Positions 8,837-64,000 of a stretch of 64,000 bases of DNA are shown one piece after another. How positions within the stretch are numbered: position 1 is the first letter of the stretch; every line of letters begins with the position of its first letter. Both the position numbers and the translations under genes were made by a program. The stretch is from a virus: IMG/VR virus record IMGVR_UViG_3300042731_006881, positions 1-64,000 of that record; one strand, 5' to 3'. The notes below the pieces were generated by a model. The model had not been told where the DNA came from. It searched no databases and saw only the letters and a list, made by a program, of their open reading frames with translations.

Positions 8837-9033
8837 TTCCCGTGCTCCAGTCCCCTTCTGTACCAGTGGGCGTTGATGGGATCGACGGTTCCTCCGCATC
8901 TCATACAGCGGTGTTTCGCGCCAACTGTTTTCGGGTCTGTCGAGACGAACTCGTGCTCCTCACACGAGTCCAGACGCCTTCTGTTTTCACGCACCTCTTC
9001 GATGATGCGTTTGGATTGAGCACGTGTGATCAT
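8833..9033 (-). CDS. small Zn-ribbon-like protein
   Basis: CEEH..CMRC; ATGA overlap with endolysin start. Confidence 0.55.
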   Translation of the reverse strand: MITRAQSKRIIEEVRENRRRLDSCEEHEFVSTDPKTVGAKHRCMRCGGTVDPINAHWYRRGLEHGK

Positions 9034-9038
9034 TTGAC

Positions 9039-9239
9039 CTATCCAGACTTTCTGGCTTTTCGGGCCCGAGCATCCGCAACTGCAACAGGAGTCCTCAAGT
9101 CGTGGATTTCTCTCTCGGCTGCAGACAGCCATGAAGGTTTCCACTTGCGCCCCCTGACCCAATCGACGATATCGGAGATCAGGGGACGAGCAATCTGGCG
9201 CACGAGCGGATTTGTGAGTATGGCAGCGAGCCCCCTCAC
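9039..9239 (-). CDS. small basic/amphipathic protein in lysis cluster
   Basis: GTGA overlap with upstream gene. Confidence 0.55.
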   Translation of the reverse strand: MRGLAAILTNPLVRQIARPLISDIVDWVRGRKWKPSWLSAAEREIHDLRTPVAVADARARKARKSG

Positions 9240-10063
9240 TGAGGGTCTCCAAGCAGCTCTTCCGCTGCATTGAGCGCCGATTGAATCTTGTCTGGGATCT
9301 TCACTCCAGAGGCCTCCAGGAGGCGCACAGAGTCGCTCAGCTTGGTGATGACGCTGCGTAGCTCGTCGAGTACCTCCTCCCCTTCAAGTAGGCGTTCACG
9401 GACCACTACGAGCAACCTGCGGGCCTCGACGAGCACATCTGCGATTCGCTCTGCAGCCGACAACTCCGCCTCTGTTGGCTCGTCGAGCGACTCGATCCAG
9501 TTCGCTGCCACGTTGTCCGAAGCCTCGATTGCTTCGACGGCGAAAGCGTATCCAACCACGGTTGCACGCTCGACGTCAGCCGCGCTATGTGGAGGCTGGC
9601 AGCCAAGTAGCGCAAGGGGCAGCGCAAGGCAGACCAGTCCGATGGAGATCGTCTTCTTCGTGGTGGATCCGATGTTACCGGTACCGTTTCCGAACAGCGC
9701 AATCACGATGTCCTGCGTCAACAGTACTCCGGCCCACGCCGACACGAAGGTCTTCCCTGCGTCAGCCCACGATGCACCAGCAACGAGAGATGCAGCAACC
9801 GTTGTTAGAGCAGCCACAGTCGGGGGGATGACTCGGCGTAGCTTGCTTGGGATCTGTTCCCAAATCTGTGGCTTGAATAGCCTCCATGCGTGGACTCCTA
9901 GCGCAATCGCGATCCCAGTGAACACCGTCCAGTTACCCCATGCTGAGAACAGCGCCTCAACGAGCTCACCAGGTTCCGAGTCGGGGGTCTGTCCAAGCGC
10001 GATCGCCGGCGCACACAACACTGCTAATGCGGCCATAACTGCCGCCAATCTGATTCCAATCAT
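9236..10063 (-). CDS. holin-like multi-pass membrane protein with internal lipobox
   Basis: Signal-like N-terminus, several hydrophobic helices, then KKTISIGLVCLALPLALLG-C and a helical acidic domain; upstream of endolysin. Confidence 0.6.
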   Translation of the reverse strand: MIGIRLAAVMAALAVLCAPAIALGQTPDSEPGELVEALFSAWGNWTVFTGIAIALGVHAWRLFKPQIWEQIPSKLRRVIPPTVAALTTVAASLVAGASWADAGKTFVSAWAGVLLTQDIVIALFGNGTGNIGSTTKKTISIGLVCLALPLALLGCQPPHSAADVERATVVGYAFAVEAIEASDNVAANWIESLDEPTEAELSAAERIADVLVEARRLLVVVRERLLEGEEVLDELRSVITKLSDSVRLLEASGVKIPDKIQSALNAAEELLGDPQ

Positions 10064-10079
10064 TTTACCGTTCCTATCA

Positions 10080-26737: not shown

Positions 26738-26765
26738 TTGAAAAGTCGCGCATGGGCGCTATAAT
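26738..26765 (+). promoter_or_regulatory. sigma70-like promoter antisense to the tail operon
   Basis: TTGAAA-N16-TATAAT; predicted +1 at about 26771-26772, the 5' end of the tRNA-like element. Confidence 0.75.
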
Positions 26766-26770
26766 GGGAC

Positions 26771-26850
26771 GGCTCTACACATGGAAAACCGCTAGGGGCA
26801 TCGCGGAGTACTCCCGTTCCTACGGCCCGGTTCGATTCCGGGGTAGAGCC
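26771..26850 (+). ncRNA. anticodon-less tRNA-like RNA 1
   Basis: GGCTCTAC/GTAGAGCC stem; ACA-TGG-AAAA; long irregular stem CCG-C-TAGGGGC/GTTCCTA-CGG; T-arm CCCGG-TTCGATT-CCGGG; intergenic. Confidence 0.7.
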
Positions 26851-26880: not shown

Positions 26881-27012
26881 TCACCACAACATGTCTAGTA
26901 CCGTGACGACAATAACGGTGACGATTACGATGACGCCAAACCAGCCAACGTAATCATCACCGTCACCAACATCTACTCCACCACCAGTGTCACACGGGCC
27001 ACGCTGGTCCAC
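26881..27012 (-). CDS. small membrane peptide (43 aa)
   Basis: GTG 4 nt after tube stop; acidic N-terminus then WFGVIVIVTVIVVTVL. Confidence 0.4.
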   Translation of the reverse strand: MDQRGPCDTGGGVDVGDGDDYVGWFGVIVIVTVIVVTVLDMLW

Positions 27013-44382: not shown

Positions 44383-44726
44383 TGGTAGCCACTCCCGTCG
44401 TCCACGATGACGCGCTCATGACCATGGTGTATTGGTGGTGGATCTGGCCGATGCATCGGTATCCCTGCCTCGGTCAACAGTTGCTCGATCGCGTCGGCTG
44501 CTCCGAGCTCTAGCGAGTTGTCCGTCTTCATGCATGCGCGGTCCAGGAAGAGCGCTCTTGCTACTCGGAGGGACTCTGCCCAGCCCTTCCATGGGCTCAA
44601 GTTCCGAAAATGGTGTACAACTAACCTTTGTGCACCATCGCGACAAGAAGCTCGAGCGACAGCAATTTCAACCTCGTAGACTATCATATCTACGACGGCT
44701 TCTATTCCTCTACTCATCTTCATCAA
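44379..44726 (-). CDS. hypothetical protein
   Basis: Overlaps dnaB stop and next start. Confidence 0.55.
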   Translation of the reverse strand: MMKMSRGIEAVVDMIVYEVEIAVARASCRDGAQRLVVHHFRNLSPWKGWAESLRVARALFLDRACMKTDNSLELGAADAIEQLLTEAGIPMHRPDPPPIHHGHERVIVDDGSGYQ

Positions 44727-47185
44727 TCCAAACTCCTATCAAATCCCCAGTCGTCAACGTCACCCGGGCGCGGCCTGGCGTAGGACGGCTCCTCATCGAT
44801 TTCCTCCAGGTTGTCGAAGCGCGTGTATGCCGACGTGAACCTAGTCCGCACAGTCCCTGTTGGACCATTTCGCTGCTTCGCGATGATGACCTCCGCAACG
44901 CCCATGTCAACGCTATCCATGTTGTAGTATTCATCACGGTAGATGAATATGATAGTGTCGGCGTCCTGCTCAATTGCCCCTGACTCGCGCAAATCGCTCA
45001 GCTGAGGGCGCTTGTCATGTCGAGACTCCACCGAGCGATTCAATTGTGATAGCGCTAGTACAGGAACTTCGAGCTCTTTAGCCAACTGCTTGAGCCCGCG
45101 CGACAACTCGCTGACCTCCTGCTCCCTGCTATGCGCATTCCGCCTTCCGCGCATGAGTTGCAGATAGTCGATCGCGATGAGACCGAGGCGCTTCCCTTTG
45201 TGTCTGAGCTCCGCCTGATACCGGCGCGATTTCGCCCGCACTTCTCCGAGCGATATTGCAGGAGTGTCGTCCACCCGAAGCAGCATGTGCTGGAATGCTC
45301 TAGACTTGTCGGTGATGCGACTCCAATCGTCGGAGTTGAGAGATCCGCTCCTGAGTCGCGACACATCAACCCGCGCTTCCGCAGCAAGGAGACGCAACGC
45401 CAATTGCTCAGTCGGCATCTCGAGCGAGAAGAATGCCGCAGCCAAATCGCTCTGCTCCCAATTTCCAGGGGTTACCTCGCGCGCCCCAGTCATGTTCGCA
45501 GCCACGTTGAGGACGTAGCTCGTATTGTGGGTAACAATGAACCCCTCGGTAACGAACATCCCATCCTCGTTGCTTACCTTGATGCAAGTGCAACTGCTCC
45601 GACCGGTTGGTATCACCCTTGCGATATATCGCTCGCGAAGTCGAAGTTCCCCACCAACCCACTTCTTCAAATTCTTGTCGCTGCTCACGGGCATGATATC
45701 CCCACCGGGGAACGAAAGGTTGATCCTCCAGTACTGTCTCGCGCTGCATAGTTCCCCGTTCTTCCGATACGATCCTTGGTGCTCTGCTGATTTCGCTCTA
45801 CCACCGAGCGACCTAACCAGGAACTCAACGTCATCGCGCAGCTTCTCCGATGTAGTGCAGTATTCAATTCCCTTCCCGTGCGGGTCGCAGACATAACCGT
45901 CTGAATCGCACAAGCCGTTGAGAAGAAGTTGCCGATGCTCCCAGCACCCTAGCAGGTACGCCTCTGGAATGAACTTCTCGTGCGACCTACAACATAGCAG
46001 ACCCAACGCCATCAGGTACCGTTTGATCCCCAACAGTGAAACTCCACCACATCCATCGTTGAACCTGCTAGAACCACCTTCCCAACGCTGTTCGACGCAG
46101 AAGACAACGTCTTTCTCTGGGTTGTGTATTCGCTGCCCACTACCATCCCCGAGCCATACACCAAGCACGTATGGGTCAATCGGAATCTCGGATGGTTCCC
46201 GTTCAGACCACCGCATCTTCGCAGCAAACTGGATGCTATGATTCAATCCTCCATCTGAACGATGAAGTGTTCTGGCAATATCCGCCGTGGTACGCACTGC
46301 TCCACACAAACCAGCGCGCCTATCAGATCGTGTACGAGTCACCCACAGGTGCTCGCCGCACACCTCTACCGAGCAACCGTCTGATGTTTCAACAGAAAAC
46401 GTCTCCTTCGTTCCTTGTGGAAATACACCCTGCACAATAGTTGGTAACCCGTCGGCTCCCATCACCAGATCGCCAACTCGCAGCGACTCTACGCGCTTCC
46501 ATCCACCCGGCGTCAGTACTCGCTGTCCATCCTTCAGGGCCTTCCCCATCCCGGGCCTCCCAGCCACGATGAAGAGCTCTCCAGGGTGCATCCCCGTCGT
46601 GAGTCTGTCCACATCGTCAAAACCAGTTCTAGCTCCGGTCACTCCGCTCGCGCCCGACCTCGATGCGGTTGCCACCGACTCGAGAGCTTCTCCCACCGCT
46701 TCGCCGATATCGACCATTGATCGCGCCGATCCGGCCTGGGCGATCGCCGAGAGTTTCTGCTCCGTTGCGTCGATGTATTCCTGTGGGTCCCCACAATCTC
46801 CGTGGGCCTCCGCCGCTGCCCTCTGGCACACGCTAATGAAGCGCCGCAGACGCGCCTTGTCGCGTACCGTCTCGGCGTGCTGGACTACGTTCGATATCGC
46901 CGGTGTCGCATGGGTGACACGCACGAGGTACTCGGTGCCTCCGACCCGATCGAGCTGGCCAGCGTCCTTCAGCCGCCCGCGGATCGAAACCAGGTCAACC
47001 GCGGATCCGTCGGAGCTGACACCGATGACTGCCTGAAACAGGATCCGGTGAGCGTCCGAGTAGAAATCAGCTGGCTCAACCAGTCCGTCCACGAGGTCTA
47101 GCGATGGGTCCGGGTGCAGGATGCAGGCGCTCAGCACAGCCACCTCGGCCTCAATGTCGTGCGGGGGTAACGAACCGTCGCTCAC
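44723..47185 (-). CDS. dnaB: replicative DNA helicase DnaB, intein-containing
   Basis: PPHDIEAE, AGRPGMGK/T, FFSLEM, IDYLQLM, LSQLNR, LSDLRESGAIEQDAD, KQRNGPTG. Confidence 0.97.
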   Translation of the reverse strand: MSDGSLPPHDIEAEVAVLSACILHPDPSLDLVDGLVEPADFYSDAHRILFQAVIGVSSDGSAVDLVSIRGRLKDAGQLDRVGGTEYLVRVTHATPAISNVVQHAETVRDKARLRRFISVCQRAAAEAHGDCGDPQEYIDATEQKLSAIAQAGSARSMVDIGEAVGEALESVATASRSGASGVTGARTGFDDVDRLTTGMHPGELFIVAGRPGMGKALKDGQRVLTPGGWKRVESLRVGDLVMGADGLPTIVQGVFPQGTKETFSVETSDGCSVEVCGEHLWVTRTRSDRRAGLCGAVRTTADIARTLHRSDGGLNHSIQFAAKMRWSEREPSEIPIDPYVLGVWLGDGSGQRIHNPEKDVVFCVEQRWEGGSSRFNDGCGGVSLLGIKRYLMALGLLCCRSHEKFIPEAYLLGCWEHRQLLLNGLCDSDGYVCDPHGKGIEYCTTSEKLRDDVEFLVRSLGGRAKSAEHQGSYRKNGELCSARQYWRINLSFPGGDIMPVSSDKNLKKWVGGELRLRERYIARVIPTGRSSCTCIKVSNEDGMFVTEGFIVTHNTSYVLNVAANMTGAREVTPGNWEQSDLAAAFFSLEMPTEQLALRLLAAEARVDVSRLRSGSLNSDDWSRITDKSRAFQHMLLRVDDTPAISLGEVRAKSRRYQAELRHKGKRLGLIAIDYLQLMRGRRNAHSREQEVSELSRGLKQLAKELEVPVLALSQLNRSVESRHDKRPQLSDLRESGAIEQDADTIIFIYRDEYYNMDSVDMGVAEVIIAKQRNGPTGTVRTRFTSAYTRFDNLEEIDEEPSYARPRPGDVDDWGFDRSLD
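45524..46540 (-). mobile_element. intein (339 aa) with LAGLIDADG homing endonuclease, class-3 signature
   Basis: Inserted at P-loop GK|T; starts ALKDGQRVLTP, ends IVTHN; EHLW, CTCIKV; endonuclease blocks LGVWLGDGS and LNGLCDSDG. Confidence 0.9.
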
Positions 47186-47574: not shown

Positions 47575-48581
47575 CCGAAAACGTCCTCGGGGCGGGGGGC
47601 GCGCGACCTCTCGGCTCCGTTCGCTCGTTGCTCGTCAGATATCACCCACGCCTCTGCAGTGTCCTGCCACCTATCCGAATGCGTGCCCTTCCCGCGATGG
47701 TGCGATCGGAATTTTCGCTCGTGTTGCTCTGGGTCAATGCCGATTTCTCGAAGGCGACGCACCTGGTCCTGCGTCCACCCCTTCCACCGACCTACCCTCC
47801 CATACTGGGATGGGTCAGAACCAAACAGCAGCTCGTCCGCAGGGCTCGGATGAGGTTGCTCGCGAGCGCGGAGTCGTGACCTGTCAGGTGGATCCGGATC
47901 TTCAGGATCAGGATCAGGATCAGGATCAGGATCAGGATCAGGAGATCGGGGGTCGGTGGACCCCATGCCAACCCCTTCACAAGGGGCTTCTAGAACTCCC
48001 TTACTAAGGGGCTGTTCATTGGCTACAAACCCCTTCACAAGGGGCTTCGAAGGGGCTTGCCAAGGGGCTTGCCAAGGGGCTTGCCAAGGGGCTTCGAAGT
48101 ACACATGTGACCCCTTCTTTGGTGGCTTCGAAGTACCATCCCAATCTCGCGTGAGGTTAAACCTCTCGTCGTACATCTCAACGAACCGGCGCGTGAACTG
48201 GTGATCACCAAAGTTCTGAAGAGAACGGATCACCTGTATCCGCTTGTTGTCGCCCACCTTCATCGATTCCCCAATCTGAGTTCTAGCTCCAGACGGGAGA
48301 AACATCAGCTCCTCGCCTTCGTCGATGAGCGCAAAGTCTTCGGCGATCAAAACGTCTAGCGCCTCCCTTACGCGATCCTCTTTCCACCCGAGCTCATGCA
48401 TGATGATCGGGACGGATAGGTGAAACAGACCGGTCATTGTCGTGTGCGGACCCGTCATTAGGTAGCAAGCCAGCGCCTGAGCCAGTGGATTTCCTCGAAG
48501 ACGCTTTCCGGTCCCTCGAGTCCAAAACACAGGAGCAACCTGAGCGTGGTGCCTCACTCTTCGGTTCCTCGCGGGTCGCAT
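47571..48581 (-). CDS. phage replication initiator protein
   Basis: P.FW..GK.LR..YLMT.PH..M.GLF.L..ELG N-terminus; APWQ and DP repeats in the linker. Confidence 0.8.
   Translation of the reverse strand: MRPARNRRVRHHAQVAPVFWTRGTGKRLRGNPLAQALACYLMTGPHTTMTGLFHLSVPIIMHELGWKEDRVREALDVLIAEDFALIDEGEELMFLPSGARTQIGESMKVGDNKRIQVIRSLQNFGDHQFTRRFVEMYDERFNLTRDWDGTSKPPKKGSHVYFEAPWQAPWQAPWQAPSKPLVKGFVANEQPLSKGVLEAPCEGVGMGSTDPRSPDPDPDPDPDPDPEDPDPPDRSRLRAREQPHPSPADELLFGSDPSQYGRVGRWKGWTQDQVRRLREIGIDPEQHERKFRSHHRGKGTHSDRWQDTAEAWVISDEQRANGAERSRAPRPEDVFG
47891..48095. repeat. putative replication origin: AAGGGGCT iterons plus GATC cluster
   Basis: AAGGGGCT at 47981, 48006, 48039, 48050, 48062, 48074, 48086; nine GATC in 47891..47947. 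Confidence 0.65.
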
Positions 48582-49440: not shown

Positions 49441-51060
49441 TCAAAACAGCTTCCCCTGCCTAGGCGACTTCTCTGGTTCCGCTCGCAATGACTCACGCGG
49501 CACGTAGCTGCCGCCATCTTCGTGGGTGAGGCGAGCTCGCGCGATCGACACGAACGGCTCTTCGTCGGTGTCGTTGAGCTCGCACCCAATCCAACGGCAC
49601 CCTTCGCGCATCGCCGCGATCCCCTCAGACCCGCCGCCGGCGAATGGGTTGAAGACGACCTGGCCAGGTCGAGCCACGAGTCGCGTCAGCCATCGGATGA
49701 CGTCAACGCTCTTTGATGTTGGGTGTACGTTTCGCGCACCACCAGCGCCGGCGCGGGCGCTCTTCAGCCCTACCTGCTCGTCTTTCCGCGCCGTTGCCTC
49801 GGCCGCGCTTCTGGTTCTGAAATGCTTCAGGCCAGCGTCCTTCTCGGCGCGACCGGGCTTCGCATGGTAGAGAAATTCCGGCTCGTCTGACGCGAACTGG
49901 GGAAAGTAGCGTGCACGGTCGCCAAGCGCCTTCGCTGGGCACCCGTCGACGCACTCCCAAACCTCAATATCCTCGGTAGCCTGGTCCCGTCGCTGTCCAG
50001 GCCTGAAGGCGAACGAGGTTGAACCATCGCCCTGGTAGGACTTATCTCCGCTCACTTCGTTCTCTCGCCCGTTGGTGTGTCTCACCTTCGAAACGCTGGA
50101 GCCGGTGAACGAAGACGGCTGCGTGTCGCGGTTCGGCGTGTCCCAGGCTGGATTTGCCGCAACGGATCGAGTTCCTACGAGTCGGCATCCAGGGGCGTGT
50201 TGGATGAGCACGTTGGGGGGCCATCGTCCTGATGTTACCTCGCTCGCTCCAGAGAGATCGCTGGCATTTTTCCAGCTATTTTCCATCTCGCCACCGCGCG
50301 CCCGAATCGCCTCGACCCCGGATCGGTGCTGCTCGAAGTCATCTTTGGACGCATGCTCAATGCGACAGGCGTCGATGTTGAGCGTACCCGTTCCGTGCGC
50401 CAGCGCATTCTCGGCGTAGGTACCCTCGAGCGGCTTACGGCAGACGAAGATCGGTTCATGCGATGGGCGCAACCCAGAGCCCTGCCCAGACCACCGCATA
50501 GACTCCTCAGTGGACGGGCATAGGTGGTCGCCAGGCTTCCGTGCCTTAGGCAGCGTGCTGGCGCAGTGCCGTCCTGGCAGCGTGCATTGGTGCATCGCTA
50601 CCATCCGCTCCATGTTTACAGACTTCGGCATCCCTTGGCCGTATAGCCACTGGATCGTGTCCAGTAGCTCGAATCCGGCTAGGCGCAGCGAGATGCCCAT
50701 CAGATCCTCTGTTCGCGTACCGGAGAACGTGAGTAGGTATCCGCCTGGCTTGAGAATTCTGAGGCACTCGCTCCACACCTCGGGACCCGGGACGAAGCGG
50801 TCCCATGTGCGGCCCATGAAGCCGCGCTTGCGCTTCAAGTACGCCTGTCCAGCAAGCCAGCACTCGAGCGCCTCGGTCACGTCTTTCGTCGTGATTTTGC
50901 TGAGCCCATATGGAGCGTCGGTCACGATCGCGTCGACGCAGCTGTCGGACATGCTCCGCATCGTGTCGATGCAGTCTCCGTGGACTACACACCACCGCGC
51001 TTCGCCAGAGAGGACGTCATCTGGGGTTGAATCAGCCACGCCGATCCCAAGGCCTCTCAC
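49441..51060 (-). CDS. N6-adenine/N4-cytosine DNA methyltransferase (beta class)
   Basis: GDC..VDAIVTDAPYG, R.LKPGG, HEPI, GRWP.N, HPT.K, FNPFAGGGS. Confidence 0.9.
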   Translation of the reverse strand: MRGLGIGVADSTPDDVLSGEARWCVVHGDCIDTMRSMSDSCVDAIVTDAPYGLSKITTKDVTEALECWLAGQAYLKRKRGFMGRTWDRFVPGPEVWSECLRILKPGGYLLTFSGTRTEDLMGISLRLAGFELLDTIQWLYGQGMPKSVNMERMVAMHQCTLPGRHCASTLPKARKPGDHLCPSTEESMRWSGQGSGLRPSHEPIFVCRKPLEGTYAENALAHGTGTLNIDACRIEHASKDDFEQHRSGVEAIRARGGEMENSWKNASDLSGASEVTSGRWPPNVLIQHAPGCRLVGTRSVAANPAWDTPNRDTQPSSFTGSSVSKVRHTNGRENEVSGDKSYQGDGSTSFAFRPGQRRDQATEDIEVWECVDGCPAKALGDRARYFPQFASDEPEFLYHAKPGRAEKDAGLKHFRTRSAAEATARKDEQVGLKSARAGAGGARNVHPTSKSVDVIRWLTRLVARPGQVVFNPFAGGGSEGIAAMREGCRWIGCELNDTDEEPFVSIARARLTHEDGGSYVPRESLRAEPEKSPRQGKLF

Positions 51061-59063: not shown

Positions 59064-59719
59064 GACGAAACCTCAAACTCCACTCGCCACACCCATGGAT
59101 TGGATGCCCACATCAGTGAATGGCGGTCGTCATAGATGGTATCCCACGTCACCACGAATGACAGGACGTGGGGGTCTGATCCGTTCGTGCGGTGTAGCTC
59201 GTCTCCGAATATCCGCTGGTCTTTGCCGATCATATCGAGAGGTGTAACTCCCTCTCGTTGCGCGTCATCATCGGTGATGTCCTGGAGGTGCTCGACACGA
59301 ACATCAGTCACACGCAGCGTGATTCTAGACGCCCATCGCGGCATGTGGATGGATGGTCTCCACGTGATGTGCGGTGGCGGGTCGTTGGCGTTTGCGATCG
59401 GCCCATGTACGTGCTGACGGTTTGACGGAACGAACGCCATATCTGCTGCAAATAGCGTCCCCCAGCACCCGTGCGAGAAAGCGCTAGCCCACTTCTCTCG
59501 TACCCATAGACGATCGCCTGTCTTGCCACATGGCGACCAGTCCAGCAGCTTTTCGCTCGACACATCGTTCCACCGCATGCGCCGATCGCGGAAAGTCCAA
59601 TCGTAGCCCCTGGTAGTGCTCGGCCCGAACTCGCGCAGTTTGACCGGGCGGCGCGTGACGGTCTTCCTCCCGTCGAGGATTGCACGAACCAGTGGTCCAG
59701 AGAAGAGGATTGGCTTCAT
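59060..59719 (-). CDS. ASCH/PUA-like phage protein
   Basis: PILFS..VRAILDGRKT.TRR, GDRLWVRE, WRPSIHMPRWASRI, NPWVW.VEF. Confidence 0.85.
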   Translation of the reverse strand: MKPILFSGPLVRAILDGRKTVTRRPVKLREFGPSTTRGYDWTFRDRRMRWNDVSSEKLLDWSPCGKTGDRLWVREKWASAFSHGCWGTLFAADMAFVPSNRQHVHGPIANANDPPPHITWRPSIHMPRWASRITLRVTDVRVEHLQDITDDDAQREGVTPLDMIGKDQRIFGDELHRTNGSDPHVLSFVVTWDTIYDDRHSLMWASNPWVWRVEFEVSS

Positions 59720-59733
59720 GAGAAAACTCCGTG

Positions 59734-60021
59734 TCACTGCGCACCTACAGGTGGCTCCAAAACCAACAGTCTGCGTCGGTGGATCTTGCACTGCCTATCG
59801 ATCTCCTCGCCGTACCAGCAGAGCCACTCGCCACAACGCCACATTTTTCCTGAGTAGACACCTGATGGGCATGACCACTCGTAGTTGGCTAGTCCGGAAA
59901 ACTCCTCCCTGGTGATGATGGCGATACGGTCAGTGATGACAATGTCCTCGCTACTGGGTTGGGTCCAGTGGCGAGCAAGCGGGCTCGTCATGGGCGGGAT
60001 GCGGTTGGTGACGGAGATCAT
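59734..60021 (-). CDS. hypothetical protein
   Basis: W.QP..L..Y..S.PSGVY.GKMWR pattern; coupled to Cro-like gene. Confidence 0.6.
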   Translation of the reverse strand: MISVTNRIPPMTSPLARHWTQPSSEDIVITDRIAIITREEFSGLANYEWSCPSGVYSGKMWRCGEWLCWYGEEIDRQCKIHRRRLLVLEPPVGAQ

Positions 60022-60272
60022 CAGAAACCCCTATTCACCTCGCTGAAAACCTCCGTGAACTCATCCGGTGTCAGCCACGATGACTGTGGCACCCTCCCCT
60101 GACTCCACCGCTCGATGCGAACCCTGTTCACGTATTCGGGCCGAGCTTGACCACAAACCCAAGCCAGGAGGCTTGGTGCGCTCACTCCAATCTCCCTGGA
60201 GACTTGGGCTTTATTCCCGCCACGAGACTCTATTTCCCGCAGCAGCATGGTGCGTGCCGGTACGTCGTGCAT
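60021..60272 (-). CDS. Cro-like HTH regulator
   Basis: KAQVSREIGVS...L.AWV.G..RP...IE..S.G.VP..SW; first gene of leftward operon. Confidence 0.8.
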   Translation of the reverse strand: MHDVPARTMLLREIESRGGNKAQVSREIGVSAPSLLAWVCGQARPEYVNRVRIERWSQGRVPQSSWLTPDEFTEVFSEVNRGF

Positions 60273-60280
60273 TTTAGGAG

Positions 60281-60353
60281 GAGCTAACGCCGCCAGATTA
60301 TTTTGTCAACAACAGGCTTTTTCCTTGCGCCATGGATTAGCCGTGGCTAACAT
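60281..60353. promoter_or_regulatory. divergent promoters with palindromic operator
   Basis: Minus: TTGACA-N17-TAGCTC (weak -10). Plus: TTGCGC-N17-TAACAT overlapped by TTAGCC-GT-GGCTAA (60337..60350). Confidence 0.65.
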
Positions 60354-60360
60354 GTGTCCT

Positions 60361-60582
60361 GTGACGGGGACGATACTGACAAGCGCCACATCCGAAGTTG
60401 CAGGCACACACCTGCAACGAGTTCGCAAATCAGTTCGCTCATTTGAGCGCACTCGGGAGCGTAAGTGGCTTGAGATTGCGAAAGCAGAACTAGCCATTCT
60501 ACATCAGATGGCGGCGCGTTCCCCCCAGCTCTACGGGGACGTATTCGGAGAGGCTAGGCGCCTAGTTGAGGAGTGGTCGTGA
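60361..60582 (+). CDS. hypothetical protein (probably leaderless)
   Basis: GTG 7 nt after the -10 element; in frame with ORF 60247..60582. Confidence 0.5.
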   Translation: MTGTILTSATSEVAGTHLQRVRKSVRSFERTRERKWLEIAKAELAILHQMAARSPQLYGDVFGEARRLVEEWS

Positions 60583-60584
60583 GC

Positions 60585-61139
60585 ATGTCTGCTGTCCTCG
60601 ACCAGGCAGACGCCATCTGCCAGGAAAAGCGGGACCTGGCTGAATGGCGCTCGGCTACGATCCACCATGCGTTTGGGTGGATCCACTGCGAGGGTGGGTA
60701 CGAGGCAATCGAGTATCGCCACCAGCCGGACAACACAACCGTGTCCCGATCGTTGGGGCGACTCATCTACAAGGATCGCGAGCATGGAGTATGCATGCAC
60801 TGCGGTCGAGAATTCGAGCTGTACCACACGCCCGGTTCGGCCTGGAGCTTCGGCGAGTACGTCCCTGAGGGACCGTGCTGCTGCTCGCCGGAGTGCGAGC
60901 TGGAGATCGATATCGAGTGCGGGATCACCTGCACTAGTTGTGGAGTGGAGCGAGCCACACGCAAGGATTCGGACGGGAACGCAGAGTGCACCGTTTGTGC
61001 TTCGCGTGCCCTTCGTGCCTGCGTAGAGGCAGAGCTCCGACACCTGCGGGACCTATCCGCAGGATACCGGGACACCATCCCGGCACCTATCCCGGTTGAC
61101 GGCTGTCTGGATACGCCGGCCGCCGACCGGAGCATTTAG
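60585..61139 (+). CDS. Cys-rich Zn-finger protein
   Basis: GAGGAG upstream; CMHC, CSPEC, CTSC, CTVC. Confidence 0.65.
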   Translation: MSAVLDQADAICQEKRDLAEWRSATIHHAFGWIHCEGGYEAIEYRHQPDNTTVSRSLGRLIYKDREHGVCMHCGREFELYHTPGSAWSFGEYVPEGPCCCSPECELEIDIECGITCTSCGVERATRKDSDGNAECTVCASRALRACVEAELRHLRDLSAGYRDTIPAPIPVDGCLDTPAADRSI

Positions 61140-61165
61140 CCGCAAACAAGCGGCGGGAGGAACAA

Positions 61166-61522
61166 ATGAAAAATTGCATCGCCCAGGAAGTTGTGTTTCT
61201 AACCCGTGGCCACGTGGTAGCGAAGCTGCCGCCGGCTAAGAATCCTGCCATGGCCGTGGCCAAGCCATCAACCACCGACTTCGACTCCGTGATGGGAGTC
61301 CCCATTGAGGTGTCGGACCGCGCTCCAACCGAGCGCATTGACAATCTACCAGATGAAGGGGATATCCTAGTGGCTCTCGCAGTCGTGTCGGCGATGCGAG
61401 AGCTTGGAACTCGACACCATGGGAGAGTGTTCTCGCCGAAGCCTCTAGTCTTCGATGAGAACAGAAAACCAATCGGCACGCCTGGCCTCATCAGGCATCG
61501 AGACGTCGAAGAGACTGACTGA
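61166..61522 (+). CDS. ORF overlapping structured RNA region
   Basis: Strong GGGAGG RBS, but the body is full of hairpins and repeats, so coding status is doubtful. Confidence 0.35.
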   Translation: MKNCIAQEVVFLTRGHVVAKLPPAKNPAMAVAKPSTTDFDSVMGVPIEVSDRAPTERIDNLPDEGDILVALAVVSAMRELGTRHHGRVFSPKPLVFDENRKPIGTPGLIRHRDVEETD

Positions 61523-61596
61523 AACGAAGCGGCGCAGTACCCGTCCCCTCGAACTGTGTCGCGACCCGTCTACAGGCCATCTGTAGCGGGTCAAAT

Positions 61597-61654
61597 GCCT
61601 TATCTCTGGGAGCAGGATTGGTCCTACCTGGTCGGTTCGATTCCGACGTAAGGC
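61597..61654 (+). ncRNA. anticodon-less tRNA-like RNA 2
   Basis: GCCTTAT/GTAAGGC stem; CTC-TGG-GAG; CAGG/CCTG arm; T-arm GTCGG-TTCGATT-CCGAC. Confidence 0.65.
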
Positions 61655-61781
61655 CTAGGAGGTGTTGGTGAATGCCTAGCGCATACCCCGAAAACCAATG
61701 AGGAATTGTACGTTGCAGACCCTCCACGAGTGGATGGTTTTAACCCACAAACCGCTCGGTACGCCTGGCCTCATCAGGCAT

Positions 61782-61815
61782 CGGTCCGTCGCAGCGAGCT
61801 CGCTGCGACGGACCG
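61782..61815. repeat. perfect 34-bp palindrome
   Basis: CGGTCCGTCGCAGCGAG|CTCGCTGCGACGGACCG. Confidence 0.9.
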
Positions 61816-61962
61816 CGGTCGAGTGTATCGACCACCTACAGCCCTTGGAAGAGCGGCTCGCAGCCATCGTTGCGCCAGCAGTCGTGTCGGCGATGCGAGA
61901 GCTACGCCGTGCTCACAGGTGACGGCCTGCTTCGACGCGATTGCCACGCACAGGAGGTGTTG

Positions 61963-62163
61963 GTGAAGCTGATTGTAGAAACAACAGAAGACGAGTACGG
62001 TACAGCGTGGTTCACCGCAACGGTGAACGGAAAGAGCTGGATAAGCGTTGACCTGAACTTCGCGCTGAGTGTTCCTGACCTAATGCGAGAAGCATACGAG
62101 GCTGGGAAGCGCGGAGAGCCGTTTGATATCGAGAAACGAAATGACCCAGAAAGGGTCGATTAG
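61963..62163 (+). CDS. small acidic protein (66 aa)
   Basis: AGGAGG RBS then GTG; MKLIVETTEDEYG..AYEAGKRGE. Confidence 0.7.
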   Translation: MKLIVETTEDEYGTAWFTATVNGKSWISVDLNFALSVPDLMREAYEAGKRGEPFDIEKRNDPERVD

Positions 62164-62166
62164 AAT

Positions 62167-62218
62167 TCCTAACAGCTGGTAGCTGATGGTCCGTTGCGGT
62201 TCGATTCCGCGGTTAGGA
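62167..62218 (+). ncRNA. anticodon-less tRNA-like RNA 3
   Basis: TCCTAAC/GTTAGGA stem; AGC-TGGTA-GCT D-like arm; T-arm TGCGG-TTCGATT-CCGCG; begins 3 nt after a stop codon. Confidence 0.65.
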
Positions 62219-62282
62219 TCAGGGCGAGAGCAGCCGAACCGCGGGACAGCCCTTGGCGCCAACGAGGGACCCTCAACGACAG

Positions 62283-62324
62283 CGGTGGACATCCGGGAAA
62301 GACCGGTGGACAGCCGGGAAAGAC
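62283..62324 (+). repeat. 21-bp tandem repeat x2 forming GAAA-loop hairpins
   Basis: CGGTGGACA(T/G)CCGGGAAAGAC twice; each gives CCGG-GAAAGA-CCGG. Confidence 0.8.
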
Positions 62325-62446
62325 CGGCATTCAAGCTAACGCAATCTGGCTGGCTGACAACGCCACATGTCAATCACTCTCCATAACAACACTGCGTTGT
62401 CAGCCATCTAGAGTGCGTTAGCACCTAATAGGAGGAAGCAAAATAT

Positions 62447-62528
62447 CTACAGCTCTCTAGCGGGCTGACGTCGTGGTTTCGTCCCCCTCCCAACCCCATC
62501 ACGACGTCGGTCCACTAGAGCGCTGTAG
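62447..62528 (+). ncRNA. long intergenic hairpin with C-rich loop
   Basis: CTACAGC.CTCTAG.GGGCTGACGTCGTGG pairs with TCACGACGTCGGTCC.CTAGAG.GCTGTAG including G-U pairs. Confidence 0.6.
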
Positions 62529-62542
62529 CCTGAAAGGATCTG

Positions 62543-63058
62543 ATGATAGTAGCTTTCGACGTGGAGACAAATGGTCTCTTTGGGCAGCCGTTCGCAGTCG
62601 GCGGCGTTGTCTTGGACGAACGAGGGGATACTTTCAGCATATTCAGGTCGCGCTGCCCGATTGTCGGGAACGTTGACCAATGGGTTGGCGCTAACGTTAT
62701 CCCAAAGCTCGAAATGCATGTTTCAGCCACTTCATTGTCCGAAATGCAGGACGCATTTTGGGAGTGGTGGCTGGAGTATAGAAATGATGCAGACGGACGT
62801 ATAGTTGTGGACGTAGGATACCCTGTTGAGACCGGGTTCCTAAGGGCATGTCAGGAAGCGGACCCATCGCGCGAGTGGGAGGGACCGTATCCTCTAATCG
62901 ATCTTGCTGGAGTACTTTTGGCGAGCGGAATAGACCCTCAAATACAGAGGGTACAGCTCATGGAGCGTCTGGATCTGCAGGGTCGATCCTTCAACCAGCA
63001 CAACCCCGTTGATGATGCTATGATAGCAGCGCTTGCCGTATGGAGACTGACGCCATGA
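62543..63058 (+). CDS. DEDDh 3'-5' exonuclease
   Basis: AFDVETNG, W...NV.P.L, HNPVDDA. Confidence 0.85.
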   Translation: MIVAFDVETNGLFGQPFAVGGVVLDERGDTFSIFRSRCPIVGNVDQWVGANVIPKLEMHVSATSLSEMQDAFWEWWLEYRNDADGRIVVDVGYPVETGFLRACQEADPSREWEGPYPLIDLAGVLLASGIDPQIQRVQLMERLDLQGRSFNQHNPVDDAMIAALAVWRLTP

Positions 63059-63504
63059 GCAGCGGAGATGCGCATTTTCCAGGAATTCGCGACGCGATGC
63101 GGGATCTACAGCAGGCGCGAGAAGACTGCCATCGCACCATGGCACGCAGCAGCAAGTCCAGCTCGTCGATCCAAGCGCAGCGGGAACATCTGGCATCTCG
63201 GCTCAGTGATGAACTGAGTTCGATGGACCTCGGAAGCCTAGTCACTCGTGACCGTGTAGTGCGGCACGTTCAGAGTCTGGAGAGAGCTCTAGAGGTAGAA
63301 GAGGCTCGCTCCAGAGGTCTCGAAAGCGACGTTGCTTTCCGCGACCAAGCAATCGCAGATCTGCGTCAACAGATCGCGAATCTCGAGATGCGTGTTGACG
63401 CTGAGCGCCGCACATCGGAGGGGCTACTGGAGTCCCTCAACCGAGACGGAGTGCGGCAGGCGCACTCTGAGGCGATCCGTCGAGATCTGGAGGAGAGGGG
63501 ATAG
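63055..63504 (+). CDS. coiled-coil protein
   Basis: ATGA overlap; heptad-rich. Confidence 0.6.
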   Translation: MSSGDAHFPGIRDAMRDLQQAREDCHRTMARSSKSSSSIQAQREHLASRLSDELSSMDLGSLVTRDRVVRHVQSLERALEVEEARSRGLESDVAFRDQAIADLRQQIANLEMRVDAERRTSEGLLESLNRDGVRQAHSEAIRRDLEERG

Positions 63505-64000
63505 GTGACTAGCGATACTCCTTCCATGACGTGCCGGTACTGCCAGTCTCCACTCGTGCGTGGTGGACCTCAGCAGCGTCTGTGCGGAGACCTGATTGAG
63601 TACTGCAAATGCAGCAACCCTGCATGTCTAGGGACCACTCCGCTGGTCGTTGAGGCATGTCAGCACGCACGTGTGGCAAGGGTGTCAATCGACCGTCTGG
63701 GAGACATGGCCGTTGACGTTCGCAAGTACAGCTATCGCGTCATCTGGTCGCAGGATGACGAGGAGCACGTGGGGCTGTGCTCGGAGTTCCCGAGCCTGAG
63801 TCACCTAGCTCCAGACCAACTCGAAGCGTTGCAGGGCATTCACGACCTCGTGGAGTCCGTCTGCGCTGACATGGAGGCAGCAGGCGATCCGCTTCCGGAG
63901 CCGCTGGCGATGAAGGCTACTTTCGATCTCCACAATGGCTCGAGCAGCAGTAGGTCAGTCGTGCGTGTCAGATGCGTGGAATGCGGACGTATCTGGACAG
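63505..64000 (+). CDS. HicB-like domain protein flanked by Cys motifs (partial, runs off window)
   Basis: From ATG 63706: YSYRVIWSQDDEEHVGLCSEFPSLSHLA..EALQGI..LV..DM..G.PLPEPLA; frame is open from GTG 63505. Confidence 0.7.
   Translation, partial: MTSDTPSMTCRYCQSPLVRGGPQQRLCGDLIEYCKCSNPACLGTTPLVVEACQHARVARVSIDRLGDMAVDVRKYSYRVIWSQDDEEHVGLCSEFPSLSHLAPDQLEALQGIHDLVESVCADMEAAGDPLPEPLAMKATFDLHNGSSSSRSVVRVRCVECGRIWT

Follow-up and report, generated by a model that had tools for sequence, protein, structure and literature searches.

Structured spacers at the start of a phage early operon

The window considered here is the whole 64-kb stretch of DNA that was analysed, bases 1-64000 of the 89,747-bp virus record IMGVR_UViG_3300042731_006881, which has direct terminal repeats and is rated complete. 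Its region 61090-62530 is best read as the hypervariable start of the rightward early operon, filled with ORFan open reading frames (ORFs), and not as a single RNA gene. In the best-supported account, the region holds two real small genes (o118 and o66), one permuted paralogue of o118, and 0.6-0.8 kb of spacer. The spacers appear to carry two lineage-specific families of sense-strand RNA structure: modules in which a GACCC...GGGTC hairpin is joined to a transfer RNA (tRNA)-like unit (TL), and long hairpins (HPs) of 82-88 nucleotides (Table 1). It is proposed, tentatively and with somewhat less than even confidence, that these elements punctuate the early messenger RNA (mRNA) through ribonuclease (RNase) P, RNase Z and RNase III, possibly also releasing tRNA mimics.

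The observations behind this proposal are sequences, folds, covariation between paralogues, coding statistics and positions relative to the cistrons, and from these transcription, every cleavage and any effect on expression are inferred. RNase P and the 3' tRNases recognise the acceptor/T-arm half of tRNA, and minihelices made of the acceptor/T stack are RNase P substrates. In the phage message, host RNase P would cut at the 5' end of each TL (U at position -1, a 12-bp acceptor/T stack, a canonical T-loop and a GG in the D-loop), while a 3' tRNA-processing enzyme would cut after the discriminator base. The upstream cistron would be left with a protective terminal hairpin, and after the cut at TL1 the downstream message would begin at its own Shine–Dalgarno (SD) sequence. 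Stems of at least 20 bp are RNase III substrates, and the long hairpins would act as entry sites for this enzyme, as stabilisers that protect mRNA ends, or as both, and in this way would control how stable and how well translated the messages of the downstream recombination genes are. The excised TL RNAs of 52-58 nucleotides may also be functional themselves, since a third unit, TL3, stands alone with its own promoter.

If the TLs are cleaved, host enzymes would offer the phage a simple means of making adjacent early genes independent of each other in stability. Should the excised RNAs serve as decoys, these would represent a new kind of RNA counter-measure.

The tRNA-like units

TL1, TL2 and TL3 each contain the top half of a canonical tRNA, that is, a 7-bp acceptor stem on a 5-bp T stem that carries a UUCRANY-type T-loop, identical in all three (GGTTCGATTCC). 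TL1 is composed of the acceptor GCCUUAU/GUAAGGC, a D-loop-like CUGGGAG, a short middle hairpin and the T arm GUCGG-UUCGAUU-CCGAC. In TL2, the acceptor is UCCUAAC/GUUAGGA, followed by a mini D hairpin (AGC-UGGUA-GCU) and the T arm UGCGG-UUCGAUU-CCGCG. Only 25 nucleotides in TL1 and 19 in TL2 lie between the two nucleotides adjacent to the acceptor and the T arm, and therefore neither unit has an anticodon arm or a D stem. All three carry UGG three nucleotides after the acceptor stem and lack an encoded CCA, and both TL1 and TL2 have U at position -1. An earlier sequence-only reading had noticed two tRNA-like elements in this region. Both are real, but only as partial tRNAs, reduced to acceptor stem, T arm and T-loop.

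The T-loop 11-mer occurs three times in the genome, always on the + strand, against 0.1 copies in 100 dinucleotide-preserving simulations. Similarly, a finder for an acceptor stem plus T arm returned four genomic matches where the simulation mean was 0.12 and none of 100 simulations reached four. The fourth match (50005-50089, - strand) falls within a methylase gene; its loop is non-canonical, and the match may be due to chance. In the alignment of the three units, every pair cell is paired (36/36), and six of the twelve pairs are changed on both sides. None of 500 shuffles attains these two values, and when the partners are slid by 1-3 columns, only 34-47% of cells pair.

Common search tools respond weakly to these elements. 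ARAGORN at default settings reported no tRNA in the window or in the whole genome, and the best scores against the Rfam tRNA clan were 20.4 bits (tRNA-Sec, for TL1) and 18.3 bits, under the 47-bit threshold; for TL2, Rfam matched the T arm alone (15 nucleotides, 8.8 bits). Default tRNA finders and Rfam thus miss such units, which an acceptor-stem-plus-T-arm search recovers. A covariance model of the TL units (R2) was built for further searches, beside one of the long hairpins (R1); TL1 scores 70.3 bits with R2, by construction.

Several known classes were considered and rejected. A canonical tRNA does not fit the missing finder call, the sub-threshold Rfam scores and the lack of room for an anticodon arm in 52-58 nucleotides. 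Transfer-messenger RNA (tmRNA) was dismissed after an ARAGORN tmRNA search (-m) returned nothing, the elements being just 52-78 nucleotides long. The Pfam and PHROG scans, which took in 112 ORFs (26 + 86), gave no TROVE match, and there was no Rfam match to YrlA or another bacterial Y RNA, which speaks against that class as well: no Y RNA appeared in Rfam searches at E values up to 10 in 59500-64000 or at the gathering score in 60-89.7 kb. A phage attP site or tRNA 3' fragment was also set aside, the units having a full 7-bp acceptor with its 5' strand and the scanned ORFs no integrase or recombinase family.

The placement of TL1 and TL2 is that expected of punctuation, namely a tRNA-like fold on the sense strand that abuts cistrons. 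TL1 lies between o118, with its terminal hairpin hpA, and an SD sequence, ending 2 nucleotides before AGGAGG. TL2 starts 3 nucleotides after the o66 stop codon and 9 nucleotides after hairpin hpB, GACCC-AGAAA-GGGTC (62143-62157), which sits in the 3' end of o66. Both units therefore start 4-9 nucleotides past a GACCC...GGGTC hairpin that closes the upstream cistron. Only seven such hairpins exist in the genome, and the base common to hpA and hpB suggests that each hairpin was copied together with its TL, as a single module. The idea that tRNA-like units serve as processing punctuation, already part of the sequence-only reading, is consistent with this anatomy; the accompanying view of the whole region as one RNA or a cluster of small RNA (sRNA) genes is not.

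TL3 differs in its setting. A promoter, TTGAAA-16-TATAAT, ends 6-7 nucleotides before its acceptor 5' end and is the best of only three genomic sites with at least 10/12 promoter matches. In addition, its acceptor can be extended to 8 bp by a G-1:C73-like pair, a pair of the kind that marks tRNA-His. The promoter provides the strongest hint that the TL family is expressed as RNA, and TL3 shows that the units need not be mere punctuation. In the same spacer, a hairpin at 26902-26973 is far more stable on the - strand (-38.8 vs -20.8 kcal/mol), matching the direction of the flanking late genes.

TL3 also gives weight to an alternative in which the TLs are themselves the functional product. They would be small tRNA mimics, working as decoys or sponges that occupy a host factor reading the acceptor/T-arm half, such as a defence toxin directed at tRNA, an enzyme that modifies tRNA or adds CCA, or an aminoacyl-tRNA synthetase, and mRNA cleavage would merely release them. 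This account is given a modest, clearly minority probability. TL3 punctuates nothing, and transcription from its near-consensus promoter would start at the acceptor 5' end; the UGG is kept in all three copies, where the D-loop GG could meet the T-loop, and the additional G-1:C73-like pair of TL3 points the same way. Phages often keep counter-defence functions among early ORFan genes, and TL1 and TL2 are placed among such genes. On the other hand, no tRNA-related or Ro60/RtcB-type protein was found among the scanned ORFs and no partner was identified, the TLs are not conserved in relatives, and no RNA run among the public runs contains the sequence.

A broader form of the same idea describes a private family of anticodon-less mini-tRNAs (52-78 nucleotides) that act as decoys for a host factor, whose excision, together with C-loop hairpins, also splits the early message into stabilised cistrons. 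Two units would be cut from the early mRNA, and TL3, with its tRNA-His-like G-1:C73 end, would be made from its own promoter. The target would be a reader of the tRNA top half, for example an acceptor-end-directed defence toxin or a tRNA enzyme. The chance assigned to this combination is likewise small; if it is true, it would constitute tRNA punctuation in a bacterial virus. A mimic or decoy function is compatible with punctuation and is favoured by TL3.

The long hairpins

The second family is found in the spacer that ends at the 171-amino-acid gene, where HP1 and HP2 stand in tandem, separated by a 24-nucleotide linker. They are alike at 50 of HP1's 92 aligned positions, and the single mismatches between their stem segments coincide. 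Of 27 aligned pairs, 16 are identical; both partners differ in 6 and one partner in 3, and the remaining 2 no longer pair. A search of the whole genome with R1 recovered only two further sites, HP3 and HP4, both on the + strand, also in tandem and located before an SbcC-like gene, in the next long spacer of the operon that contains HP1 and HP2. HP4 has the same bulge positions as HP1 and HP2, and in the three hairpins 77 of 81 cells are paired and 14 of 27 pairs covary, counted in a model-fitted alignment, which favours pairing.

Stem lengths agree with the size of RNase III substrates (at least ~20 bp), as HP1 and HP2 have 27 pairs each and HP4 more than 30. Position is also regular, since HP2 and HP4 each stop 4-5 nucleotides short of the SD sequence of the next gene. 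CUCC or UCCC, complementary to GGAG, is present in the loops of all four hairpins. Pairing between these loops and an SD sequence was considered and rejected, being sterically unlikely in cis across a 27-bp stem and statistically marginal by estimate.

HP3 is much more stable in the sense orientation than as its complement (-37.0 vs -30.4 kcal/mol), and so is HP4 (-59.0 vs -40.4 kcal/mol), which points to RNA and not to duplex DNA. Both hairpins depend on G-U pairs of the sense strand, which is difficult to reconcile with a function of the DNA itself, whether as an origin of replication, as a hot spot of recombination, or as inverted repeats and iterons bound by proteins. Such a role does find some encouragement in the 21-bp tandem repeats (two helical turns) beside long inverted repeats, in HP1 and HP2 folding equally well on both strands, and in the recombination genes close by. 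Nevertheless, compensatory changes across 27-bp arms are unlike a protein-binding site, a tRNA-like fold has no rationale in DNA, no integrase was found, and a better origin candidate exists at ~47.9-48.1 kb beside the DnaB-type helicase gene, so that a DNA-level role is regarded as very improbable. The candidate origin consists of iterated CCCCTT-N-AAGGGG hairpins at 47941-48060 (-). The helicase (44723-47185, -) has 820 amino acids and matches DnaB_C in two stretches, and this length suggests an inserted element such as an intein.

A control function during transcription is another explanation of the two spacers, at 62164-62542 and 66.4 kb. They would gate the delayed-early genes as Rho-type or U-tract-less terminators, or as put/nut-like antitermination RNAs with boxB-like CCGG-GAAAGA-CCGG sites. 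The spacers stand at two early-operon boundaries, ahead of the recombination module and of the SbcC-like gene; the loops are rich in C and poor in G (11 C and 1 G among the 30 nucleotides of HP1; 13 C and 2 G among the 24 nucleotides of HP2, including CCCCCUCCC), and the tandem purine-loop hairpins are unique in the genome. Tandem hairpins and C-rich loops of this kind presumably resemble lambda boxB, rut sites and HK022 put. An intrinsic terminator was rejected, as HP1 and HP2 are followed by ACCUAAUAGG and CCUGAAAGG and no U tract follows any of the hairpins; the single + strand terminator-like site that the scan gave (62587-62605) falls within the next gene. Moreover, the second locus at 66.4 kb has no boxB-like pair, the Pfam and PHROG scans identified no N- or Q-like protein, and no Rfam family matched. 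Transcription control is thus judged improbable, with roughly the standing of a weak outside candidate, and punctuation of the early mRNA stays the preferred account of the long hairpins.

Folding of the region

The sequence-only reading had described the region as dense in RNA structure, and this description is borne out. All the hairpins that it named exist, at or within 1-2 nucleotides of the positions given, and each folds better than its dinucleotide shuffles (200 per hairpin), with z-scores from -2.9 to -10.0. The weakest is the hairpin at 61092-61130, within the last 50 nucleotides of o188 (z -2.9), followed by the tandem GAAAGA hairpins at 62280-62330 (z -3.8), the hairpin at 61373-61403 in the o118 coding sequence (z -3.9), hpA at 61563-61592 (z -5.4, -20.3 kcal/mol) and the 34-bp perfect palindrome at 61782-61815 (z -6.8). 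The two with the lowest z-scores are those at 62335-62422, which contains the previously listed 13-bp inverted repeat (z -10.0, -46.3 kcal/mol), and at 62447-62528, listed as an 82-nucleotide hairpin (z -9.6, -49.3 kcal/mol). Whole spacers behave in the same way (62164-62542, z -7.9; 61523-61962, z -4.7), and the coding ORF 61166-61522 also folds better than its shuffles (z -3.5). In a genome-wide scan of 120-nucleotide, GC-corrected windows ranked as 1.5-kb blocks, the region is among the top 1.2% most structured blocks on the + strand and 3.1% on the - strand; the most extreme block lies elsewhere, starting at 68821. The folding of 61090-62530 is therefore distinctly better than that of shuffled sequence.

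What does not survive is the interpretation of 61090-62530 as one large structured RNA or a polycistronic sRNA cluster. A literal form of that idea can point to the whole stretch ranking so high among structured blocks. However, two ORFs with good coding statistics and ribosome-binding sites (RBSs) fill ~40% of it, a rearranged paralogue lies there as well, one of the ORFs has a confident structural model, and centroid folds of the spacers contain no long-range pairing beyond the local hairpins. A single RNA or a pure cluster of sRNA genes is consequently scarcely credible.

Small genes, rearrangement and relics

Coding content was assessed with a codon log-likelihood score (LLR) trained on 46 long ORFs of this genome; in 70-codon pieces, coding sequence has a mean of 0.197 and non-coding frames a mean of -0.336 per codon. 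Coding sequence makes up ~42% of 61090-62530. The region had earlier been credited with only one convincing protein gene, o66, but o118 is a second, with an SD sequence, gene-like codon statistics and a confident model in the ESM Atlas. Its RBS, GGGAGG, stands 6 nucleotides before the ATG, its codon score is mid-range among the real genes of the phage, and just 0.9% of non-coding frames exceed 0.212. The Atlas model has a predicted template-modelling (TM) score of 0.75 and a predicted local distance difference test (pLDDT) value of 0.84; AlphaFold2 without an alignment gave a pLDDT of 39, which is unusable. Other ORFs inside 62164-62542 have LLR values of about 0 or below, and antisense ORFs range from -0.22 to 0.03 per codon.

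Among 5.8 billion proteins, o118 and o66 match only themselves, while o66 shows a weak match to phrog_26564 (E 1e-4) and the Cys-rich o188 has no Pfam or PHROG match. In the Atlas, the structural neighbours of o118 comprise hypothetical proteins of phages and a portion of SAVED-domain proteins from actinobacteria (TM scores of 0.70-0.73 by query). This likeness is no more than a lead towards a possible defence-related role of o118.

The stretch between o118 and o66 was evidently shaped by duplication. Three blocks recur, all within 600 nucleotides: two from o118, called A (61370-61404) and B (61466-61514), and the RBS-plus-start block of o66. From block A, 61379-61404 is repeated at 61878-61903 (26/26 identical), and from block B, 61473-61500 is repeated at 61756-61783 (27/28 identical); the RBS-plus-start block AGGAGGTGTTGGTGAA is found at 61657-61672 and 61952-61967 (16/16 identical). 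In a tblastn comparison, o74 and o118 align in one frame with 86% identity over 14 amino acids and 48% over 44 amino acids. The block order is A then B in o118 and B' then A' in o74, both in frame, and this swap identifies o74 as a permuted paralogue of o118. Having no SD sequence and poor codon statistics, o74 is probably decaying. The perfect palindrome sits exactly where the B homology stops and homology to mid-o118 starts, repeat D1 running into its left arm and repeat D6 overlapping its right arm. It is thus probably the scar of a rearrangement junction, for example from a template switch, and not a conserved RNA. Additionally, the hairpin at 61373-61403 loses three of its nine pairs in the paralogous copy, in which the peptide is kept.

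This history raises the question of whether most of the region is non-functional debris, with the TLs as internally deleted tRNA pseudogenes, the hairpins as selfish repeats similar to repetitive extragenic palindromic (REP) sequences or miniature inverted-repeat transposable elements (MITEs), and the palindrome and duplicated blocks as scars. Every small ORF here is an ORFan, the A, B and RBS blocks are duplicated at 89-100% identity in scrambled order, a perfect palindrome marks the junction, the hairpin of block A has not been kept in the paralogue, and nothing is conserved in relatives. Other observations weigh against decay: the TLs retain all 36 pairs despite many substitutions, HP1, HP2 and HP4 keep 77 of 81 pairs with 14 covarying and the same bulge positions, HP3 and HP4 are strongly strand-specific, the elements regularly follow a stop codon or hairpin and immediately precede an SD sequence, and TL3 has a promoter. 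A debris origin is accordingly considered unlikely, if by no means negligible.

Table 1. Position and character of the features of the early region and of the related elements elsewhere in the genome (nt, nucleotides; aa, amino acids).
Feature	Coordinates	Strand	Remarks
TL1, 58-nt tRNA-like unit + discriminator C	61597-61655 (unit to 61654)	+	
TL2, 52-nt tRNA-like unit + discriminator U	62167-62219 (unit to 62218)	+	
TL3, 78-nt third family member	26772-26849 (with promoter 26738-26850)	+	Antisense to flanking - strand tail genes
hpA hairpin (GACCCG-CTACAG / CTGTAG-CGGGTC)	61563-61592	+	Ends 4 nt before TL1
Two tandem 21-nt units, each a CCGG-GAAAGA-CCGG hairpin	62283-62327	+	Between TL2 and HP1; unique in genome
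HP1, 88-nt hairpin	62335-62422	+	Stems of 9, 5 and 13 bp with single mismatches between
AGGAGG without start codon behind	62430-62435	+	In 24-nt HP1-HP2 linker
HP2, 82-nt hairpin	62447-62528	+	9-5-13 plan as HP1; ends 4 nt before SD of next gene
HP3	66379-66452	+	R1 16.8 bits, E 0.04
HP4	66453-66544	+	R1 27.6 bits, E 3e-5
o188, Cys-rich ORFan, 188 aa	60573-61139	+	LLR 0.172 per codon
o118, ORFan, 118 aa	61166-61522	+	LLR 0.212 per codon
o74, permuted o118 paralogue	61698-61922	+	LLR -0.041 per codon; no SD; coding status doubtful
o66, ORFan, 66 aa	61963-62163	+	GTG start 6 nt after AGGAGG; LLR 0.375 per codon
Orphan copy of o66 RBS + start (AGGAGGTGTTGGTGAA)	61657-61672	+	Stop after 3 codons
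Perfect 34-bp palindrome	61782-61815		Arms 100% complementary
171-aa gene	62543-63058	+	LLR 0.179 per codon; first gene after structured spacer
Small helix-turn-helix (HTH) gene	60021-60272	-	Faces rightward block

Relatives and the limits of the punctuation reading

The phage has relatives at the protein level. Its RecE-like protein has 66 homologues, and an alignment of 16 of them led to 76 loci (72 metagenomic, 3 from IMG/VR and 1 genome), 75 of which were compared. These relatives have a recE-phrog_3657-phrog_1499 module in common. Among the relatives, R1 gave moderate matches in L085 (28.3 bits) and L064 (23.4 bits), both hairpins with C-rich loops upstream of recE; their stem plan differs, and the one in L085 is more stable on the other strand. 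The best R2 match, L080:7342-7395 (54 nucleotides), has a 5-bp closing stem only, lies beside an excisionase-like gene and is possibly a tRNA fragment of the att type. The tRNA located 300 nucleotides upstream of recE in another relative (L034:7633-7707) is aberrant, having a 6-nucleotide anticodon loop, and an uncalled 85-nucleotide tRNA-like element lies near the recE module of a further one (L018:10210-10294). These tRNA-like and hairpin analogues are weak.

Wider searches were made as well. Two exact TL patterns had no matches in IMG/VR; a degenerate pattern had three, which were rejected, one being an ordinary tRNA matched through its anticodon arm and two unlike TL1 and TL2. IMG/VR locus searches with the 171-amino-acid protein or the RecE-like protein singly returned nothing. 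In one metagenome-assembled genome, a candidate host-side genome, R1 and R2 had no match, which is an uninformative result.

Several results weigh against the punctuation of the early mRNA. None of the 75 relative loci contains any of the seven small ORFs or DNA similarity to 61000-62600. The best E value for R2 was 0.38 in the 76 relative loci (495 kb) and 0.34 in two related phage records, and R1 had no match of note in those two whole records. Without members in relatives, all covariation is between paralogues of one genome; that of the TLs could have been inherited from different parent tRNAs and not maintained afterwards. The hairpins that precede the elements of L034 and L018 do not fold better than their shuffles, and upstream hairpins occur before ordinary tRNA genes too, as seen in four controls, for which reason a hairpin before every tRNA-like unit was abandoned as a statistic. 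Nor do spacer hairpins favour the sense strand in general: of 11 co-directional + strand spacers, just 5 are more stable in that orientation, and HP1 (-46.3 vs -48.0 kcal/mol) and HP2 (-49.3 vs -46.7 kcal/mol) show no strand asymmetry. Furthermore, the RNase steps presume a suitable enzyme set in the host, the sole public sequencing run with this sequence is of DNA and probably its source, with no RNA run listed, and the surrounding rearrangement debris implies that some elements may be relics.

The phage genome

The source phage is novel, myovirus-like and terminally repeated, without close relatives. The genome had zero nucleotide matches in 50,697 GenBank phage records at two search sensitivities, and 60500-63100 had none in the same records by megablast and blastn. 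The Pfam and PHROG scans revealed a contractile-tail gene set (sheath, baseplate J, Mu-type portal and terminase) and a leftward block of structural, methylase and DnaB-type helicase genes. The rightward block, which starts at ~60.3 kb, encodes a RecE-like exonuclease (63972-65057), a phrog_3657 protein, an SbcC-like ATPase, a DEAH helicase, a dCMP deaminase, and ParB-like and PAPS-reductase proteins. The small - strand HTH gene opposes this block, so that "rightward early operon", as the sequence-only reading called it, is a fair label. The 171-amino-acid protein at the end of the structured spacer has a single tblastn match among phages (27% identity); read by eye, with no family match, its N-terminal motif looks like that of DEDD exonucleases.

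A promoter for the rightward block was not identified in a scan of 59800-63200, where promoter and terminator counts were not above shuffles and nothing useful appeared on the + strand inside the region. Inside 61090-62530 there is no sigma-70-like promoter and no + strand terminator of the hairpin-plus-U-tract type, which is consistent with co-transcription.

Two further observations concern other parts of the genome. At 86569-89292, a 652-amino-acid protein with a Cas12f1-like TNB domain (E 7e-8) is directly followed by 10 direct repeats of ~36-40 nucleotides at ~72-nucleotide spacing, and this looks like a compact, phage-borne type V CRISPR-Cas locus. A 1.18-kb stretch at 8900-10079 received no gene from a codon-based caller, though ORFs of 316 (-) and 308 (+) amino acids overlap there.

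Comparison with known systems

Among bacterial and phage regulators of RNA processing, the closest counterparts of the long hairpins are the RNase III sites of phage early mRNAs, such as R0.3-R1.3 of T7 and the N-leader and sib hairpins of lambda. Both groups are long, imperfect, intercistronic hairpins of early phage mRNA, located directly upstream of an RBS and having conserved mismatch positions. The HPs differ in unrelated sequences, stems of at least 27 bp, large C-rich loops and arrangement in tandem pairs, and their cleavage is predicted. REP sequences and bacterial interspersed mosaic elements (BIMEs) are families of short intercistronic palindromes, often in tandem, that can stabilise upstream mRNA. 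Like them, the HPs form a family of imperfect palindromes in intercistronic spacers, also in tandem, but they exceed these greatly in length, and just four are known, all within one phage operon.

Phages are known to carry tRNAs and Y-RNA-type mimics. With the tRNA-like domain of tmRNA, the TLs have in common an acceptor stem, a stem-less D-loop with GG, a canonical T arm and the lack of an anticodon; they have neither a tag reading frame nor pseudoknots. Processing signals shaped like tRNA are textbook knowledge in mitochondria and have been described in a few transcripts of eukaryotes and herpesviruses, with examples in animal mitochondrial transcripts, the mascRNA of MALAT1 and the tRNA-microRNA units of murine herpesvirus 68 (MHV68). 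In plant mitochondria, t-elements are tRNA-like processing signals (PMC1920247). As in these systems, TL1 and TL2 are tRNA-shaped units inside what would be a longer sense transcript, directly abutting cistrons or hairpins, with the acceptor/T-arm half read by RNase P and RNase Z kept and no decoding function. The phage TLs differ in belonging to a bacterial virus, in lacking both the anticodon arm and the D stem (52-58 nucleotides), in being known from sequence alone, and in including one family member, TL3, with its own promoter.

YrlA and other Y RNAs mimic tRNA and are handled by tRNA enzymes; according to PMC4201824, they have been reported in 22 phages, and YrlA has a Ro60-binding helix formed from the RNA ends and lies within 4 kb of a Ro60 (TROVE) gene. 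The TLs resemble YrlA as non-coding RNA that combines an acceptor-like stem with a T arm and features of a D-loop, and they differ from it in that the phage genome has no TROVE protein among the scanned ORFs and no Rfam match.

Anticodon-arm-less tRNA top halves between the cistrons of a phage early operon were not described in the portions of the literature covered by the search (PMC4201824, PMC10690425 and PMC11662646, each in part), and the catalogue of more than 10,000 viral RNA motifs outlined in PMC10690425 could contain similar elements. The TLs and HPs have no sequence in common with described families, and Rfam has nothing at threshold. The proposed principle is that of tRNA punctuation and t-elements for the TLs, and that of the RNase III sites of T7 and lambda for the long hairpins.

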